Positions 7,070-63,184 of a stretch of 64,000 nt of DNA are shown in pieces. Under the pieces are notes generated by a model. That model saw only the letters and a list, made by a program, of their open reading frames with translations, ran no database searches and was not told where the DNA came from. A program made the position numbers and the translations under genes. The stretch is from Ginglymostoma cirratum. Taxonomy: Eukaryota. The stretch spans positions 21,336,127 through 21,400,126 of the forward strand of contig JAHRHZ010000140.1 of NCBI GenBank assembly GCA_024137785.1. Reading direction: 5' to 3'. Each line of letters opens with the position of its first letter. Position 1 is the first letter of the stretch.

Positions 7070-7390
7070 TGAAAGGAGAATTGAATAGAAAAGTAGGTTA
7101 TACTTCATTTACACAGGGCCCTGGTGAAACTATATCTGGAGTTTTTTGTACTGCATTGGTCTCCTTATTTAAGGAAGGATGTAAATGCATTGAAAGCAGT
7201 TCAAAGAATGTTTGCTGGACTAATAATTGGAATGGACAGGTTTTTTGTATGTGGTAAGATGGGCAGGCTAGGATGTATACGTTAAGATATGACTGGTTAA
7301 AACATATAAGATCCCAAAGACTTTTGACAGGGCACAAGGAGAAAGGATAATAGCTCTTCTGGATAAATCAATAATTTGGGGTCACTACAA
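7070..7390 (+). mobile_element. Old CR1 fragment, 5' part (continues at 9295)
   Basis: CR1 ORF2-like sequence breaking at ggggtcact and resuming as actgtttaagtataaggg. Confidence 0.65.
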
Positions 7391-7455
7391 ACAATTTGGA
7401 TGAGAATATAGGAGGCATGGTTAGTACATTTGCAGATGGCACCAAAATTGGTGGT

Positions 7456-8466
7456 CAAGATGGTGGCAGAGCAGAATGCTCTGGTCGGAGCTCCTCTGTT
7501 CACCAGTCCCTTTACCCTTTTTCTCTCTTGTTTTCTGTCTTGTTTGTGGTTCTTCCTTTCTCCCCACTCTATGCCCCACACCCCTGGAGGTGGAGTGGCA
7601 GAGCGAGTGGGCCGTGTCCTGCGGAGGACTGGAGCAAACAGGCCGAGTCCCACGGAGGACAGGAGCAAACGGGCCGAGTCCTGCGGAGGACAGGAGCGAA
7701 CGGGCCAAGTCCTGCGGAGGACAGGAGCAAATGGGCCAAGTCCCATGGAGGACAGGAGAGCGAATACGGGCCAAGTCCTGTGGCAGAATCAGCACAGGCA
7801 GCATGGCCTCGTGCTATGGGGCCTGCAGGCACAACCTGTGAGCCCCAGACACCACGAGCAAACGGGCCGAGTCCTGCAGGGGACAGGAGCAAATGGGCCG
7901 AGTCCCATGGAGGACAGGAGAGCGAATACGGGCCAAGTCCTGTGGCAGAACCAGCACAGGCAGCATGGCCTCGTGCTATGGGGCCTGCAGGCACAACCCG
8001 TGAGCCCCAGACACCACGAGCAATGAGCAGCTCGTGGGCCGTGAGCCCGGGGCAGCGGGGGGAATAATCCCCAAGGAAGCACATGGGGAACAGCTCCGGG
8101 GCAGCACTGGGAAGGAGCCCCACAGCAGCACATGGGGAAGCAGCCCTGCAGCAGTACATGGGAGACATCCCCGGGGCAGCGTGCAGGCAGTGAGTCCTGG
8201 ACAGAGACCAATGTGAGGGAACAATCCTTACCGTAGAACTTAACTTACCTTAGAACACGGTAATGTTAACCCCTTAATATTTTCTATTTTTAATTTATTT
8301 TCAGCTCTGTAATTAAGCAACTACTTCTATTCCTGTGCTGTATCCAAGAATTGTACCGAGGTACTTGTAACTAAGGTGTTAGCATAAAAAGGCAGACATT
8401 GTAAAAGTTTTTCACTGTACTCCTACAATGGAGTATACGTGACAGTAAAAGGATATTGTACATTGT
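7456..8466 (+). mobile_element. Non-autonomous retroelement: CAAGATGG head, tandem-repeat core, LINE-like 3' tail
   Basis: Splits the CR1 RT frame; imperfect TSD attggtggt (7447-7455) / attgatgat (8467-8475); ends ttttcactgtactc...gagtatacgtgacagtaaa plus attgt repeats. Confidence 0.75.
7609..8025. repeat. GC-rich 31-bp minisatellite with 162-bp higher-order duplication
   Basis: Unit gggccgagtcctgcggaggacaggagcaaac; block starting 7702 repeats from 7864. Confidence 0.9.
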
Positions 8467-25265: not shown

Positions 25266-25548
25266 TAACATTATTTTCTCACATTATTGGTTAATTGTTG
25301 ATTGGAAGGATGCAAAATCAGAGATGTGCATAAAAAGCCCAGCAAGAATGCCAAAATGGCAAATGGGATTGATGAAAAACAGTACATGGGAGAAACAGTA
25401 AAGTCAGTGAAGAAAGAAAAAAGAAAATGAAACATGGAATGGATAGGGAGTAGAGATGGTGAAGGAGCTAGATCAGTGAGAGAGAAGAGAGAACACAGTA
25501 TGGAGCTGGAGGAACACAATAGGCCAGGCAGCATCAGAGGAGCAGGAA

Positions 25549-25585
25549 AGTTGACATTTCGGGTCAGGGACCCTTCTTCAGAAAT
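25549..25585 (-). ncRNA. Minimal type I hammerhead ribozyme motif
   Basis: Minus strand: CTGAAGA-A-GGGTC-cct-GACCC-GAAA-TGTC-aact. Confidence 0.7.
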
Positions 25586-25747
25586 GGAGAGGGGGAAGGG
25601 AACTGGGAAATAAATAGAGAGGAGGGGTGGGGCTGGGGAAGGTAGGTGGGATGGTTATAGGTGAGTGCAGGTAGGGAGTGGTGAGGATTGGTCAGTGAGG
25701 TGGGAGGAGTGGATAGGTAGGAGAGAAGATGGACAGACTGTGTCAGG

Positions 25748-26503
25748 TCAAGGAGGCAGGGATGAGAGGGAGGCTTGGACATAGGATGAGGCCGGGGGTG
25801 GGGAGATTTTAAAACTAGTGAATTCTATGTTCAGGCCATTGAGCTGTATGCTCCCAAGGCGGAATATGAGGTATTGCTCCTCCAGTTTGCGGGTGGTGTC
25901 ATTGTGACACTGGAGGAGGCCCAGGATGGACATGCTGCCCAGGGAGTGGGAGGGGGAGTTAAAATGGTTGGCTATCGGAAGTTGTTGTTGTTTGTCACAT
26001 ACAGAGCACAGATGCTCTACAAAATGGTCTCCGAGTCTACACTTGGTCTCACTGATGTAAAGGAGGGCACATCGGGAGCAGCAGATACAGTAGGCCAGGA
26101 TGTCAGATGTGCAGGTGAACCTATGTCTGATATGAAAGGTTTGCTTTGGGCCTTGAATGGAGGTGAGGTGGGAAATGTAGGGGCATGTGTAGCATTTCCT
26201 GCGGTTGCAGAGAAAGGTGCCGGATGTGGTAGGGTTAGTGGGAAGAGTGGAGTGGACGAGGGAGTCACGGAGAGAGCAGTCCCTACAAAAGGCATTTAGG
26301 AGTCGGAAGGGAAACATCTCTTTAGTTGTGGGGTCGGATTGTAGGTGGCGGAAGTGGTGGAGAACAATAAGTTGGATGTGGTGGTTGGTGGGGTGATATG
26401 TGAGTGCAAGAGGGGTTCTGTTTTTATTTTTGTTGGGGAGAGGGGATGTGAGTGCAGTAGTGCGGGAAATGCGCAAGATGCAGTTGAGGACATTTTTGAT
26501 CAC
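25748..26503 (-). pseudogene. PLE ORF C-terminus: Cys-rich linker plus GIY-YIG endonuclease
   Basis: PLALTYHP...CNRRKCYTC...LAYCICCSRCALLYISETKCRLGDHFVEH...ANHFN...LEEQYLIFRLGS...GLN. Confidence 0.9.
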
Positions 26504-27049
26504 TGGAGGGGTAAGTTATGGTCCTTGAAATTGAAGGACATCTGGGACCCTTTGGGAAGTATGCAACAGTGGAACTGAATTACTGAGTTTGAGCCCAGAC
26601 ACACAAGTGCCTCTGGCCATAGTGTACATATGTGGAATTCTTCAGTACTACATGACCCATATCACCTCCATAAATTATGGGAGCAAAGTATTACATCCCA
26701 GTAGTCGAAGATCATCACATTGCACGTTTATTGGAGCTTTCAGGTACACCACATCATGTAGCAGGCCATATGATCTTGTAATTGCTCCAAGAGATAGGTT
26801 TCCAGGAAAAGATGTGGGATTTGGAATTTTAAGCACAAATGATATAAATGGAATTCATTACATCATTGGAAAATAGCTTGCTAAGCTCCCAGGCCTTGTG
26901 CCCAACTAATTCAGAGCAGTCCAATTCGACTTGAAAAACAAGGGAACCAGAAATGTGCTGATCATCTTAAGAGAACTGAAGAGGTCTGGAGCATCCTAAC
27001 AGGAGGAAACAGCGCATAAATCTGGAAAGATAGAGAAAAATCCATGGGA

Positions 27050-27360: not shown

Positions 27361-27799
27361 ATCAGTGAAGTAAATGATCCAAAGATCAAATTAGCAAATA
27401 CTTTTGTTGTTGAAATGAATGACAAACAGGGCAATTCTCATGCGGATAAACCAGAGGGAAAGGCTCAACATAGTGAAAGAGCTGTAAGGCAGGACAGTGG
27501 AACCTCATGTTAATCCGGATTCCCAAAGGATTGGGGCTGTATCACCAGTTGAGCTAAACAAGTCACTACTCCATATGTAAGCTAGCCCTTGCAACAACCT
27601 GTAAGTGCTGCTCCTAACCCCTCCAACGGGCGCTCAATGATCAGTTGTGGGGCCAGAGGGAAGCCAAGAGGTTGGGTCGGGGAGTAGCAGAGGTTGAAAG
27701 AGATCCAGCCTAAATGTGGTGAAGGAAATCCTTTACTTCAGGGATAAATAGGATCAATGAAGTTTTCCAGACATAATCAGAAAATTTGAAACTAAGGGA

Positions 27800-28008
27800 A
27801 ACCAAAAGAACTGTGGATGCTGTAAATCAGGAACAAAAACAGAAGTTGCTGGAAAAGCTCACCAGGTCTGGCAGCACCTTTGAAGAAAACATCAGAGTTA
27901 ACGTTTCGGGTCCGTCCTGACGAAAGGTCACCGGACCCGAAATGTTAACTCTGTTTTTTTCTGCACAGATGCTGCCCGACCTGCTGAGCTTTTCCAGCAA
28001 CTTCTGTT
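27800..28008. mobile_element. Fold-back mini-Penelope element with 15-bp TSD
   Basis: Inverted arms; TSD tttgaaactaaggga at 27785-27799 and 28009-28023. Confidence 0.9.
27917..27950 (+). ncRNA. Minimal hammerhead ribozyme motif
   Basis: CTGACGA-a-aGGTC-accg-GACCc-GAAA-TGTT-aact. Confidence 0.6.
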
Positions 28009-28129
28009 TTTGAAACTAAGGGAGCCTGTATCTTCACTGGATGGACAGGAGAGCTGGCTATCTGAAACCTTAATTCCACATCTAAATGGAGACCAGAGAA
28101 TTTGCCACAATGTCTGAGAAATCTATCTT

Positions 28130-34200: not shown

Positions 34201-36057
34201 AAGCAGCAGGGAAGGTGGCTTGTGGGGAAAGGAAACCAGGCAGGTTTGGCATCAGGGAGATGCCTGACAAGTTCCCACTACCCTGGGAATTAAGTTCTGG
34301 GTGTGAAGGCCTTCCCAACCTGTCACCAACTGAGATCCTTAAGAGGCCAATCAACAAGAAATAAAGGCCACTTCATGGTACCATCGCAGTTCCCAGCAGG
34401 TGAGAATAGTGGCAGCCTCCCCCACCAGTATAAGGGAATAGCCCGCCTTCTGGGCTTGGAGGGTGAGGGGATGGCTCAGTCTGCCAAAATATAGGTGCTA
34501 TATTATATATGGATGCAATTTATTGTATAAAATGAAATGGTAAATTGTTCTCCATTGTCCATTTTGTAAACAGGCAAAATAAGAAGACATTTCTTTTTCT
34601 GTCTACTTTTGGATTAGCTAAAGAATGTTCAATGCTCACAGAGTTAAACAACTTAAACTTTGAAATTCAAATTAAAAATGCTGCAGAACCTCATCTTTTA
34701 CACATCAGGGACCTTGCGTTGAAGTCAATCCAGACAGATGGAATGTCCATCTTTCCACTGGAAGTTTATGTGAAGAGTCTCAGCACAGGGCAGGAGTTGA
34801 TAGAAAAAAATGCTGCCAAATTTAGCAGCACCCACTGCTGTCTTTCTCAGAGAGACAGCCAAAATTCAGTGGATAGGAAGGAAATATCACACTGATGCAC
34901 TAAATGCAGATTTCTGAATCAAGGGTTCAACTTCATAACACAGGCAGTTCAGTTTTGCATCTGACCCATTACATCTGTGACTTGAGAGAGCTTGCCATCA
35001 TCACAGGGTGTAAAATGCCTTTTGTAAGTCTGTCATGCTTCATATTGAAAAATGCATTGATGGAGCCAAAATATCCTGCCTCCACCAAAGTTTTGATCGT
35101 CCACATCTATTACTATTGCATTAGCCTGACATATCTAAAGACTGTGGCCAGAATTCAAGAATGCCTACATTAAAACTCAGAAAGCAATTTTGTTTATTGG
35201 AAACAACAATATGCATTTTAGAAGGGCAATCAACTGGAATTTAGACCTCCATTGTCTCCTGTTCAACGTGGCAAGAGAGGAAATGAGGGCGGATTAGAAT
35301 TTAAAGAGAAGCTGTAGAGTTTGTCAATGAATCATTTCAGGTCTTTGTCAGCCAAGATTTGAACACAATCCTGTCAGATGTGACGTAAATGTGCTTTTTT
35401 TCCTACTGACACCTGTTGAAGATCCCAAGTGAAATAAGTTTTTGGAGGCTCAATCTAGCTCCCAGCGGATTTAATCCCACAGTATAAAATTACTCTCCCA
35501 TCAGACCATAGTTGGCACAAACTCAGCAGTTTTACTGAGAAAGCTGTAAGAGTACAGAGTACAGGATATGGAAGGATTTTATTGTAACGGTAGGCATTCT
35601 TGAATTCTGGCTGCAGTTGGTAGGGATAGACTTATGGACGCAGATTGGAATTGACAGGGCATTGCAGGTTCTGACCTTTTCTGTACCAGGGTGGCAGACA
35701 GTCTGGGTTAACAATGGATAAATCTTCTTCAAAACAAAATTCAAAGAATATTAGCAAATCTCTTCACAATTTCACTGCAGAATTGCAACTCTCTCTGAGT
35801 CCTCAATGCTATTCCCAAGGGTAAAAATGGGAAAGAGAAAAGTAAAAAATAAGAAGTTTCATTTGTCATTATGATGAGCACACGTGTTAAACATATTTAC
35901 AAAATATACGCAGTAACCTTGTTTTCTCAGTTCTCTGGTGTATTTATTTTGAAGCTATGAGAGACCATCTTTAACCTAGTTCTCACAGCAATTATTTTTT
36001 AGGCATCATTCAATAAGATAGTAGTTTTCCTTCTTCAAATACATTTGATTTTTAATA

Positions 36058-36638
36058 ACAAGCATGGGGCTGGATGAACACAGCAGGTCAAGCAGCATCA
36101 TAGGAGCAGGAAAACTTGACGTTTCGGGCCTAAACCCTTCTTTAGGCCCGAAACGTCAAGTTTNNNNNNNNNNNNNNNNNNNNNNNNNNNNNNNNNNNNN
36201 NNNNNNNNNNNNNNNNNNNNNNNNNNNNNNNNNNNNNNNNNNNNNNNNNNNNNNNNNNNNNNNNNNNNNNNNNNNNNNNNNNNNNNNNNNNNNNNNNNNN
36301 NNNNNNNNNNNNNNNNNNNNNNNNNNNNNNNNNNNNNNNNNNNNNNNNNNNNNNNNNNNNNNNNNNNNNNNNNNNNNNNNNNNNNNNNNNNNNNNNNNNN
36401 NNNNNNNNNNNNNNNNNNNNNNNNNNNNNNNNNNNNNNNNNNNNNNNNNNNNNNNNNNNNNNNNNNNNNNNNNNNNNNNNNNNNNNNNNNNNNNNNNNNN
36501 NNNNNNNNNNNNNNNNNNNNNNNNNNNNNNNNNNNNNNNNNNNNNNNNNNNNNNNNNNNNNNNCTGCTTGACCTGCTGTGTTCATCCAGCCCCATGCTTG
36601 TTATCTCGGATTCTCCAGCATCTGCAGTACCTTTTATC
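36058..36638. mobile_element. Young fold-back mini-Penelope element spanning an assembly gap, 14-bp TSD
   Basis: Arms perfectly complementary where visible; TSD tttgatttttaata at 36044-36057 and 36639-36652. Confidence 0.9.
36164..36563. other. Assembly gap (400 N)
   Basis: Run of N. Confidence 1.
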
Positions 36639-37155
36639 TTTGATTTTTAATATTTGCTTTTGAGCTGTGAATAATGTTGACAGAACAACATTTGTTGTCC
36701 ACTCTTAGTTGCCCTGAGAACATGATGGAGAGCTGCTTCCTGATTATGCAGTGATTGTTTTTACAATTCATTTCACATGGAGTTAAGAGTCAAACGTGCA
36801 GTGTGGGACTCACAGTATTATTTATACACTCAATCAGGTAGAGGTGGCAAATTTTCTTATTGGAGGAATGTTACTGAATAATTAAGTTCTCCCAGAAATT
36901 TTCTGATGCCTGTCTGAAGATGCCCAAATTTTCTAAAATGTATTCATAACATATCCAGGATGGTGTTATGGAGGGATGACCTAGGTGTTTGACTTATTGG
37001 AAATTACAGGACCAAGGACTTGTTAAAAGCCTATTACCAACTTGAAAATTTGACTAAAGAAATAGCTTTAGGTTGTTGTTGTGATTAACTGCAAACTGCT
37101 GGTTCAATTTTGTAATCATGTGTCTCAAAGTTCATGGGGTCAAGAAGGACGCTGT

Positions 37156-48140: not shown

Positions 48141-48744
48141 TTTACCAACCAGGCTAGGCTCAAGTTCTTACTTTATTTTTGTGCTCTGAACATCTGAACT
48201 AATTGACATGCTTGGAATAAGCTACTGCAATATAGTAACTAATATTAGTCACAAATTTTACTTTCGTAGTTCACGGTATAGAAAGCTACTGGGATTGAGG
48301 CAGTCATATAGATTCATTAAGACAGTCTACTATCAATCATTGGAGAGTTAGCTGGATTTGAAGGCGCTTCATTTTGATTTCAAGAGTGCAAATTGTAGTG
48401 CAATTACATGATAATAAAAAAATGACTTGAAATTGTACTGTTCATTAGACTTAGTAATGTTTAAATTCAAATAATGGCTGCAATGCTTGTTTTCATTATT
48501 TTTCAACAGAAAGGGTCCAATTTGTTCAATAACTTTACAGATCATAAAGTTCTAATAACTTTATGGTTATCGTCATGCTATATTAAATGAAGAAATGGAT
48601 AATACAGCAGTTAATTGAAGCGATTTTAAAATGGTAACTTTGCCAATGTTAGGGATAAATTTGATCACCAACCGATGGTAATAATTTTAAAGACAGTGCA
48701 AGAATCAAGAGACCTAGCATTACCATGCACAAAGTAAAATCTGA

Positions 48745-49003
48745 AAAAAACACAGATGCTGTAAATCATAGGCAAGAATAGGGTCTGAGGAAGGGTCTCT
48801 GAACCCAAAACATTGGCTCTGATTTTTCTCCACAGATGCACATATGGATGATGATGGGATAGTGTAGGGGGATGGGCTTAGATTAGTTCACAGGGCAGCG
48901 CAACATCGAGGGCCGAAGGGCCTGTTCTGCGCTGTATTGTTCTATGTTCTATGTTCTATGCTGCTAGACCTGCTAAGCTTTTACAGCAATTTCTGTTTTT
49001 GTT
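48745..49003 (+). mobile_element. Mini-Penelope element inside CR1, itself interrupted by a CR1 tail
   Basis: ctgaggaagggtctctgaacccaaaac; imperfect TSD attaccatgcaca (48719-48731) / attaccatataca (49004-49016). Confidence 0.75.
48840..48957 (+). mobile_element. Young CR1/HER1-type 3' tail with (gttctat)n
   Basis: gggccgaagggcctgttctgcgctgtattgttctatgttctatgttct, flanked by atgc/atgc. Confidence 0.8.
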
Positions 49004-49004
49004 A

Positions 49005-49630
49005 TTACCATATACACATTTTTGAAGTAGCTGGAGCAACTGATACTGTTGTCAAAGAAAAGCAATTGGATTATTGGTTTCATAAATAGAAGCAGAGAGC
49101 ACAAAACTGTGGAAGTTCTGCTAAACATTTAGAGGTCTCAACTCAGGCGTCAGCTGGAGTATTGTGTACAAGTCTGGACACCACCCGTCTGGAAGAATGA
49201 CAAGGCCTCGGAGAGTTTAGTGGAGTTAAATCTGGGCTGTTCTTTTGTACTGGAGAATGTTTATAGGAAATTTAATGGAGTTGTTCAAAGGGTTTTAATA
49301 GAAAAAAATGAGGAGAAACTGTTTTCAACGGCAGGAGAGTGAGTAATAAAAGGATCCAGATTAAAAGTAGTCAGTGAAATAAAGAGTGGAGATAAGGATT
49401 TGCATTTTATTAAAAATACAGTGAGTTGATATAATCTAGACAACATTGTTTAAAAGGGTTGTGGAAACAGATTCAACACTTCTTTTAAAAGTTCGATTTA
49501 CATATATACTTGACGGGGAGGAATTCCAAATAAGGGAATGAGCGGAGACTGAGATTAATTGGATTGCTCTTTCAAAGACCTAGCACAGGCATGATTGGCT
49601 AGATGACCTTTTCTCAGGTCTGATTCTACA
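49005..49630 (+). mobile_element. Old CR1 fragment
   Basis: cagctggagtattgtgtacaagtctggacacca = QLEYCVQVWTP; CR1 3' end. Confidence 0.8.
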
Positions 49631-51446: not shown

Positions 51447-51925
51447 AATAAAACAAAGAACTATGGATGCTGGAAATTAGAGACAAAAACAGAAATTGTG
51501 GGAGAAACTCAGCAGGTCTGACAGCATCTTTAGAGAGAAAAAGAGCTAACATTTTGAATCTGGTGACCCTTCTTCATAGCGTTCACCAGTCTGTGAATCT
51601 ATTGTTATCCACTAACAGTCTCCATTAACAGCTAATCATCCTCCTAGCCAGATTGTTATCAACTCCTTTGTCTGTCCAACAGTTCCTCTCTCTCTTTGGG
51701 GTCTATCCCCGCCTATTGTTTACTCCTTCCTGCCTCCCCCCACTCTACCTTTTGCATATGTACCGACGTTTTCCTAGGTACCACCAGTTCTGAGGAAGGG
51801 TAACTGTTCTGAAACTTTAACTCTGATTTTTCTTCACAGATGCTGCCAGACCTGCTGAGCGTTTCCAGCAATTTCTGTTTTCGTTCCTGATTTACAGCAT
51901 CCACAGTTCTTTCGGTTTTTATTTT
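51447..51925. mobile_element. Penelope-derived element with inverted ends
   Basis: Reverse arm 51447-51578; forward arm with agttCTGAGGAagggtaactgttctGAAActttaact near 51786. Confidence 0.8.
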
Positions 51926-60660: not shown

Positions 60661-60755
60661 ATTCTGATGAGGGATCACTGGACTTTAAACATTAGCTCTG
60701 TCTTCTCTCCATAGATGCTGTCAACCTTGCTGAGTTTCTCCAGCAACTTCTGTCT
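60661..60755 (+). mobile_element. Mini-Penelope arm with decayed hammerhead
   Basis: ttCTGATGAgggatcactggactttaaacattagctctg...agatgctg. Confidence 0.7.
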
Positions 60756-61424
60756 AGATATATACACCTTTTAAACAGGTGGGGAGTTGGTCATGAACAG
60801 ATTGTCTTGGAGAGGAAAAGTATTCATTCTCTTACTGTCCACATTCATTTCCTTATCAGTCACTCAATGAACTGCACCTTGGGATGACGGTGGGGCTGGA
60901 GCTGGGGCTTGGGGAGGTAGCGATGGCTGGTTTGTTGTAGATTACCTCAATACCTTCATTTGAAGTGAATTTGGAGGAGGAAATGTGATGGCAGACCTAA
61001 TGTTGCCCTTCCTGCAAACAGTACTTTTCTTTAAAATTGATGAAAGTCAGTGTGAGGACATTATTGCCAAGACCCTAGATTGTCAACTGACTGGCTGTCT
61101 ATAGTCTTTTCAGAGTGAAGAGAAAACCATTTTGAACATAGACTAGAATTGCATGTTGGCCTGACCAGGTGAAGGAAACCATCTAAATAAACCATGATGT
61201 AAATCCATCATCATTCCTCAAGTTCATGTATAATCTTATCGCTAAAAGCTCCATTCATCAAAGCTTTAGCTTGTCAAAATCTGTGACATAATGATTCAAC
61301 CTTTAAAATCTTACGATTTAATTGAATGGATTTTGTTTAATATTCAGCTTATTGAGGAAACACTGACCAAAAAGCATTTTTTAAAAAATTGCTTCCACCT
61401 CCAAAGGAACTAGAAAAGCATAAG

Positions 61425-61644
61425 AACGAAAACAAAGTTGCTGGAAAAGCTCAGCAGGTTGGGCAGCATCTATGAAGGAGAAAACAGAGTTAACGTTTCA
61501 GGTCCGGTTCTGAGGAAGGGTCACCAGATCCGAAACGTTAACTCTGTTTTCTCCTCCACAGATGCTGCCAAGACCTGCTGAGCTTTTCCAGCAACTTTGT
61601 TTTTGTTCCTGATTTACAGCATCCGCAGTTCTTTTGATTATTTT
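61425..61644. mobile_element. Fold-back mini-Penelope element with 14-bp TSD
   Basis: Inverted arms; TSD tagaaaagcataag at 61411-61424 and 61645-61658. Confidence 0.9.
61506..61543 (+). ncRNA. Minimal type I hammerhead ribozyme motif (best-preserved copy)
   Basis: ggtt-CTGAGGA-A-GGGTC-acca-GATCC-GAAA-CGTT-aact: stem I, core, stem II, palindromic AACGTT at stem III. Confidence 0.75.
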
Positions 61645-62206
61645 TAGAAAAGCATAAGCATTGGTTTTGTAATTCTGCTGGAAGTGGCGCAGTGGAAGCT
61701 TAGACACTCTCTGTGTGGATAGCACAGCCCCCCTGAGTTACTCAAATTGCAGCTATGTGATGTGACAACGTATGCTGGGGAGCTGTTTGTATGGGTGCAA
61801 TTACCAGAAGCTTCTGAACTGATGCTGACTTGGATCAACCATTCCAATTGATTTGATGCTCTACGTGTGACTTGGACCTCACAGGCCCACTTAGCTCATT
61901 CACTTGCTGCTCACCAAAAGATCAAGGATTCAGGATCAAGAACGTTCCAACACAAGTATCACTTAAAGGGGTGGGCATTTTGCACAATTGTAAAGTCCCT
62001 TTTAAAGGTGGAATGCTTTTCAAAGGATTGCAGTGAGTTCCTCAATTTGTTGGGGACTGTTTTTGCATCCTCACAGGAAAGACAGAGGATGAGGTATCTC
62101 GTCACTCAAACGCCACAGTAGCTGTAGGGGTCTGAGCTATAATACCCTAGGCTCCAGCCAATCAAAGTCCTCATCTGATCCTTTTGCAGCAGCAAGTGTG
62201 TCAAAA

Positions 62207-63052: not shown

Positions 63053-63184
63053 AAAAACCGAAAGAACTGCGGATGCTGTAAATCAGGATCAAAAACAAAG
63101 TTGCTGGAAAAGCTCAGCAGGTCTGGCAGTATCTGTGAAGGAAAAAACAGAGTGAACATTTCGGGTCCAGTGACCCTTCCTCAG
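63053..63184 (-). mobile_element. Single-arm mini-Penelope element with hammerhead motif
   Basis: Minus strand CTGAGGA-A-GGGTC-actg-GACCC-GAAA-TGTT at 63184-63155, followed by the same tail as 27800. Confidence 0.85.

Follow-up and report, generated by a model that had tools for sequence, protein, structure and literature searches.

The 64-kb window analysed here (64,000 nucleotides of a single Ginglymostoma cirratum contig) contains, near its downstream end, an inverted-repeat unit at 61411-61658 that is most likely a head-to-head pair of the non-coding 3′ end (that is, the pseudo-LTR or pLTR) of a Penelope-like element (PLE), flanked by a target-site duplication (TSD). Its features are as follows.

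61411-61424, unstranded: left target-site duplication, 14 bp, A-rich, an exact repeat of 61645-61658
61425-61508, minus strand: inverted, 5′-truncated pseudo-LTR arm, no tail, antisense of 61523-61607 and without the CUGANGA core
61504-61508, unstranded: head-to-head junction with 5-nt microhomology, CCGGT in the inverted arm and CCAGT in the 51785 copy, where it precedes the core
61506-61543, plus strand: minimal type I hammerhead motif (4-bp stem I, CUGAGGA, extra A, 5-bp stem II, GAAA)
61507-61608, plus strand: sense pseudo-LTR arm (3′ end of the retroelement), from profile match and alignment
61609-61644, plus strand: 36-bp tail on a single end only (a PLE signature), unpaired in the fold, its ends anchored by TSDs
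61645-61658, unstranded: right target-site duplication, an exact repeat of 61411-61424

The 14-mer has no third copy in the window, and a shared word of 12 or more bases arose by chance in 7 of 2963 random pairs of 45-nt windows. The intervening 220 bp are predicted to fold into a single hairpin (−140.7 kcal/mol, z −17.4; 0 of 200 shuffles equally stable), in which 61424-61508 pairs with 61523-61608 around a 14-nt loop, the left and right arms differ at 8 of 85 columns, and the 36 bases at 61609-61644 have no pairing partner. An earlier, sequence-only reading had described a 14-bp direct repeat around about 220 bp of inverted arms, and the exact repeat and single hairpin confirm that description.

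In the focal hammerhead, 61506-61509 pairs with 61540-61543 as stem I, CUGAGGA lies at 61510, and stem II is followed by GAAA-C-GUU with a predicted cut after 61539; the place of stem III is taken by the palindrome AACGUU. Reinspection of the core and stems agreed with the motif letters, the minimal type I class and the cut position proposed earlier; the extra A that had been pointed out is present, as a general feature of PLE minimal hammerheads (PMC4209133). These hammerheads have been described as carrying an extra nucleotide and a palindromic remnant of stem III and as occurring in thousands per genome, mostly singly; some are paired on opposite strands 100-700 bp apart, and these and the single motifs have been interpreted as truncated PLEs (PMC4209133). 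The shark unit differs from such metazoan pairs in that its second arm is without the core, so that the motif lies on one strand only (no hammerhead core was found on the minus strand of the focal element); in the text and two supplements of PMC4209133 that were searched, sharks are unnamed. An Rfam search of the element gave no match at gathering thresholds. The strict core is kept in 4 of 12 arms in the window, and among these four only the focal copy retains all four stem I pairs.

A degenerate hammerhead pattern had no matches in prokaryote genomes and 19 in unrelated metagenome loci, none of which resembles the shark family outside the hammerhead, and a 23-base family motif had no matches among viral and metagenome contigs. 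Three of the 19 loci have PLE-protein similarity directly upstream: in L008 (318-1237) a PLE protein, 43% identical over 271 aa, stops shortly before the same form of hammerhead, and L002 and L012 show a weaker match directly upstream of theirs. When 20 related motifs were aligned (6 from the window and 14 of the 19 metagenome loci, with L005, L007, L012, L014 and L016 omitted as near-duplicates), 82% of 175 stem cells were paired, which none of 500 shuffles equalled; the stem II figure is biased by the search pattern, whereas stem I, absent from that pattern, was 68% paired, and all 4 of its pairs show compensatory changes that affect both sides.

Adopting the hammerhead fold is predicted to cost 25.1 kcal/mol within the element, 8.2 kcal/mol in the right arm alone and 4.2 kcal/mol in the bare motif. 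During transcription the fold would also be costly (16.5 kcal/mol uphill at the point where stem I has just been transcribed), because the complementary arm is transcribed first, and the hairpin is modelled as keeping the hammerhead inactive in any read-through transcript. The earlier description of ‘self-cleaving units’ finds no support: the hammerhead fold is predicted to lie about 25 kcal/mol uphill in the element, and none of 14 arms starts at the cut site, with a single one (43258 R) near it.

Relatives of the unit recur throughout the window. A profile built from 6 arms matched all 12 positions that had been listed before (E 1.5e-3 to 4e-45), and so recovered the reported dozen relatives in 64 kb, together with a further copy at 25505-25582 that was absent from that list. 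The 14 loci, to which base-by-base examination was limited, cover about 2,270 bases or 3.6% of the window (boundaries set by hand), against one ORF-bearing copy; seven contain both orientations and seven a single arm (one of them cut by the window edge). They belong to several subfamilies with 72-92% identity to the focal arm, and the inverted arm ranges from less than 50 to more than 130 nt. Among 12 loci inspected for TSDs, three have one of at least 12 bp and one has an 8-bp direct repeat, a length reached by chance in 109 of 2963 random trials. The most informative relatives are listed here.

25505-26515, minus strand: 5′-truncated coding PLE copy of a related subfamily, with a 255-aa frame at 25748-26515, then a 166-nt 3′ UTR, then a hammerhead pLTR
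27788-28023, unstranded: second fold-back with a 12-15 bp TSD, its junction within 1 nt of the focal one, tail on the inverted arm
36044-36652, unstranded: fold-back of another subfamily with a 14-bp TSD, a 400-N assembly gap inside the hairpin and no complete core
48719-49011, unstranded: copy whose inverted arm is barely more than the tail, with an 8-bp direct repeat and about 118 bp of another repeat inserted
51447-51925, unstranded: fold-back in which both arms have tails and 200 nt precede the hammerhead, without a clear TSD
60662-60754, plus strand: single-arm decayed copy without a tail, starting at the core
63053-63184, minus strand: single tailed arm that begins at the core and has 91% identity to the focal arm

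Several further observations concern the window itself. Its only assembly gap (36164-36563, 400 N) lies inside a fold-back, where the real insert is probably far shorter; as a hint, this suggests that long hairpins break assemblies. The roughly 118 bp at 48840-48957 inside a family copy end in short tandem pentamers, and we take them to resemble the 3′ end of a CR1-type LINE. A G+C-rich stretch at 7297-8249, internally repetitive and open over long distances in several reading frames, is probably another repeat, and a pair of 28-bp inverted repeats at 35141-35617 (421 nt apart, 93% complementary) may represent the ends of a DNA transposon. The 200 pyrimidine-rich nucleotides at 51584-51789, upstream of a hammerhead, are a candidate 3′ UTR and include two AG sites that follow pyrimidine runs no more than 15 nt from the core (that is, candidate splice acceptors).

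The assignment to PLEs draws on the coding copy at 25505-26515. Its minus-strand frame (25748-26515), the only PLE coding remnant in the window, encodes a CX4CX2C linker and a GIY-YIG-type motif, and 98% of this frame aligns to a whale-shark protein with 67% identity. That homologue has reverse transcriptase and GIY-YIG matches (Pfam GIY-YIG above the cut-off), and its best named relatives come from sharks and rays; the window ORF alone, which is decayed, scored below the Pfam GIY-YIG cut-off and had no match among solved structures. As a hammerhead pLTR lies behind this endonuclease ORF, the repeat can be identified as a 3′ pseudo-LTR from a PLE. The proposed Penelope-like origin, and with it a non-coding unit dependent on a PLE protein, is borne out by this endonuclease-coding relative and by the anatomy of the insertion. 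A linker of the form CX2-5CxxC precedes the endonuclease motif in 91 of 97 motif-bearing homologues (121 proteins examined) and in the window ORF, and it has been given for the Neptune and Nematis clades (PMC8557442); on these protein motifs the focal PLE likely belongs to the Neptune clade, the linker being common to Nematis as well. Judged by its pLTR, the coding copy is a sister subfamily of the focal element and not its direct parent, because that pLTR is only 79.5% identical to the focal arm over 88 nt. A coding copy of the focal subfamily itself was not found in the window, and the 3′ UTR of the coding copy had no match in the 200 nt that precede the 51785 arm (its score was equalled by 253 of 300 shuffles). 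Two ray proteins annotated as host-gene isoforms (P0006 and P0010) consist mostly of the coding sequence of this PLE, either through mis-annotation or through exonisation.

Four features of endonuclease-positive PLE insertions are present: a pLTR linked to an ORF (in the related subfamily), a head-to-head inverted copy, a tail on one end and a TSD. Published PLE insertions comprise an inverted, 5′-truncated copy beside the pLTR and a tail of 30-40 bp, often on one end only (PMC8557442), and head-to-head palindromes, TSDs of 8-10 bp, solo pLTRs and mobilisation in trans have also been described (PMC3846280). The shark unit resembles these (PMC8557442, PMC3846280) in its inverted truncated copy, one-end tail, TSD, pLTR hammerhead and A/T-rich target; it differs from them in being extremely truncated with no ORF between the repeats, in having TSDs of 12-15 bp where the rotifer examples have 8-10 bp, and in its sharply clustered 5′ edge. 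The tail is on exactly one end in all four copies with direct repeats, and the tail-less ends fall at the equivalents of 61604-61607; these end positions are taken from TSD-anchored copies only, as lenient local alignment overran into the A/T-rich flanks. The arm that reaches further into the hammerhead is tailed in one of the four and tail-less in three. The green anole Poseidon element is of a different clade but similar in having two ends, separated by the tail, about 90-130 nt downstream of stem II, and in templates that appear uncleaved (PMC11167929). For an ORF start inside the shark pLTR, one decayed copy read by eye gave no sign. The Chompy repeats of crocodilians are short, palindromic, MITE-like repeats that were later classed with the PLEs; we liken them to the shark unit by description only. 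The literature consulted contains no description of this shark family, which may be catalogued in Repbase or Dfam or in the supplements of PMC4209133 or 10.64898/2026.07.22.740005.

On balance, we think it probable that the focal unit, as a TSD-flanked head-to-head pair of pseudo-LTRs likely of the Neptune clade, was built as the dead-end product of a single insertion and was not copied as a fold-back. Purified PLE protein has been found to cleave and extend both strands from two start sites that bracket the tail, with no need for hammerhead cleavage (PMC11167929). On the route that we envisage, the RT-endonuclease protein of the element would have nicked both strands of an A/T-rich target 14 bp apart, and reverse transcription from two internal sites bracketing the 36-nt tail would have produced one tailed and one tail-less end. 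The longer cDNA, copied from uncleaved RNA, would then have extended until the template ended, at a fixed position a few bases 5′ of the hammerhead core, where its 3′ end could have annealed through microhomology to the antisense strand, repair closing the junction. Priming from both nicks is the version towards which we lean, because in three of the four TSD-flanked copies neither arm is nested within the other. Snap-back of one cDNA followed by endonuclease trimming is a credible alternative that we rate as somewhat less likely; un-nested arms are equally compatible with the trimmed hairpin intermediate that PMC8557442 suggests. Several points sit awkwardly with this account: random truncation would scatter the 5′ edge, which is clustered; the junction of the focal copy reappears in the 27800 copy and in at least 6 of the 24 contig pieces listed, which come from three organisms; the coding copy found is only about 80% identical and belongs to another subfamily; and gene conversion between arms could also make partners alike.

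The focal insertion is old. Contigs carrying its flanks enter the element from both sides in organism A (differences 12/299 and 11/284, about 4%) and in organism B (24/301 and 25/305, about 8%); being common to both at these divergences, the insertion therefore predates those splits. Among the contigs of organisms A and B none spans the whole orthologous element, and an empty target site was looked for among the contigs of relatives and not found.

The clustered 5′ edge bears on the template that was copied. Seven well-preserved arms extend as far as the core. One of them, in the 51785 copy, continues for 200 nt further upstream, and in the other six the resemblance to that upstream stretch is lost within about 5 nt of the hammerhead's 5′ edge (P about 1e-6 under a rough geometric model). 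Because this edge lies 30 nt upstream of the cut site, the templates were probably uncleaved, in line with PMC11167929; cleavage by the ribozyme as the origin of the edge is rejected, as it would have set the edge at 61540. The clustering suggests that the template had a fixed 5′ end and may have been a short non-autonomous RNA; a transcription start, a splice acceptor or such a short RNA would each explain it, and the Penelope element of Drosophila virilis has an intron that stops at the 5′ end of helix I (PMC4209133).

It is conceivable, if on present evidence less likely, that the template was a discrete non-autonomous RNA of about 135-145 nt (stem I to tail), with solo pLTRs as its source and the PLE protein acting on it in trans as a LINE does on a SINE, the fold-back being formed anew at each insertion. 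Fixed ends would suit such a PLE-dependent monomer, which shows a 5′ edge in 6 of 7 arms and two 3′ ends. Contigs matched at 82% likeness number 53,539 and 61,097 in two DNA runs from related organisms, which, with the 14 window loci against a single ORF-bearing copy, also bears out the very high copy number claimed by the sequence-only reading. Loose contig ends just before 61507 (1210, 1314 and 222) form the best-supported 5′ class in three runs, their 30 upstream letters agreeing only to 0.35-0.38, and it has been reported that pLTR sequences suffice for mobilisation in trans in rotifers (PMC3846280) and that non-autonomous PLEs exist (PMC8557442). Against this, the 61507 peak also gathers all longer copies, since the reference's own sense homology stops at 61507; for 5-18 nt the majority letters of the loose ends still follow the PLE sequence upstream; a focal-type arm continues 200 nt beyond the edge; and full-length transcripts that start or are spliced at the edge, combined with priming at the upstream pLTR, would give the same edge.

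A master element that propagates as an intact fold-back, whether MITE-like or as a discrete family, is very improbable and largely ruled out by the grouping of the arms and the varying tailed side. The same junction, within 1 nt, does occur in two window copies and in paralogous contigs of three organisms (A, B and C), and this recurrence is what microhomology would be expected to give, because the bases at the core edge resemble the antisense arm both at the focal junction and at 61569-61577; the best match there of the core-edge 8-mer (7/8) coincides with a frequent class of joints at 61571-61572. More than 230 different joints occur in the contigs of the two DNA runs; those at 61571 and 61598 sit on reference indels, which makes their exact places uncertain. 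The tailed side is opposite in the focal and 27800 copies, and the arms within each copy diverge by 9.4% and 10.0%, compared with 14.5% and 19.5% between same-side arms of different copies. Among the informative changes, three events unite the arms of one copy, none unites arms of one side and one is crosswise (four of the six ‘copy’ columns are an alignment end and one indel, counted once). The fold-back is thus no discrete family: arms, junctions and tailed side all vary. The discreteness posited earlier fails for the fold-back, whereas the clustered 5′ edge of the hammerhead-bearing arm leaves room for it in the monomer of about 135 nt.

The label ‘retrozyme-like family’ does not fit a unit with a single hammerhead in a head-to-head hairpin and no head-to-tail tandem, and a retrozyme that self-cleaves, circularises and spreads by circular RNA is the reading to which we give least credence. 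Animal non-LTR retrozymes (10.64898/2026.07.22.740005; PMC7761336) are similar in being non-coding, of comparable size and derived from a PLE pLTR with a type I hammerhead; they are arranged head to tail, carry a hammerhead in two or more units and yield a circular RNA, whereas the shark unit is head-to-head with one sequestered hammerhead. In favour of kinship, the core and stems are intact in the focal copy, two copies could pair through AACGUU (−4.1 kcal/mol), retrozymes have been reported in one cartilaginous fish (10.64898/2026.07.22.740005), and rare head-to-tail joints occur in relatives (the best supported in 9 of 53,539 and 4 of 61,097 contigs). Yet no head-to-tail tandem with a hammerhead in consecutive units was found among the 14 window loci, and one hammerhead could release no unit-length RNA. 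Furthermore, its fold is predicted to be sequestered in the hairpin, the contigs show neither a peak of starts or ends at 61540 nor a fall in depth upstream of the cut site, and single minimal hammerheads failed to cleave in vitro, with dimers cutting weakly (PMC4209133).

The element itself is ordinary, the usual short remnant of a PLE insertion, and its value lies in the material that it offers on mechanism. The origin of PLE head-to-head repeats and of one-sided tails, and the role of the hammerhead, are stated to be open in PMC3846280, PMC8557442 and PMC11167929. Given tens of thousands of contigs from very short copies whose 3′ ends are of two defined kinds and whose 5′ edges cluster, a genome-wide count could test twin priming against snap-back, as well as the use of uncleaved templates. 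We put forward, tentatively and as a less probable picture, that sharks harbour a very abundant Penelope-dependent mini-element of about 135 nt, whose 5′ end at stem I is determined not by cleavage but by the start of transcription or a splice acceptor, and the copies of which would record twin priming at two tail-bracketing sites from both target nicks, joined at recurrent microhomologies. If this is true, the copies would constitute a natural data set for how PLEs build their head-to-head repeats.
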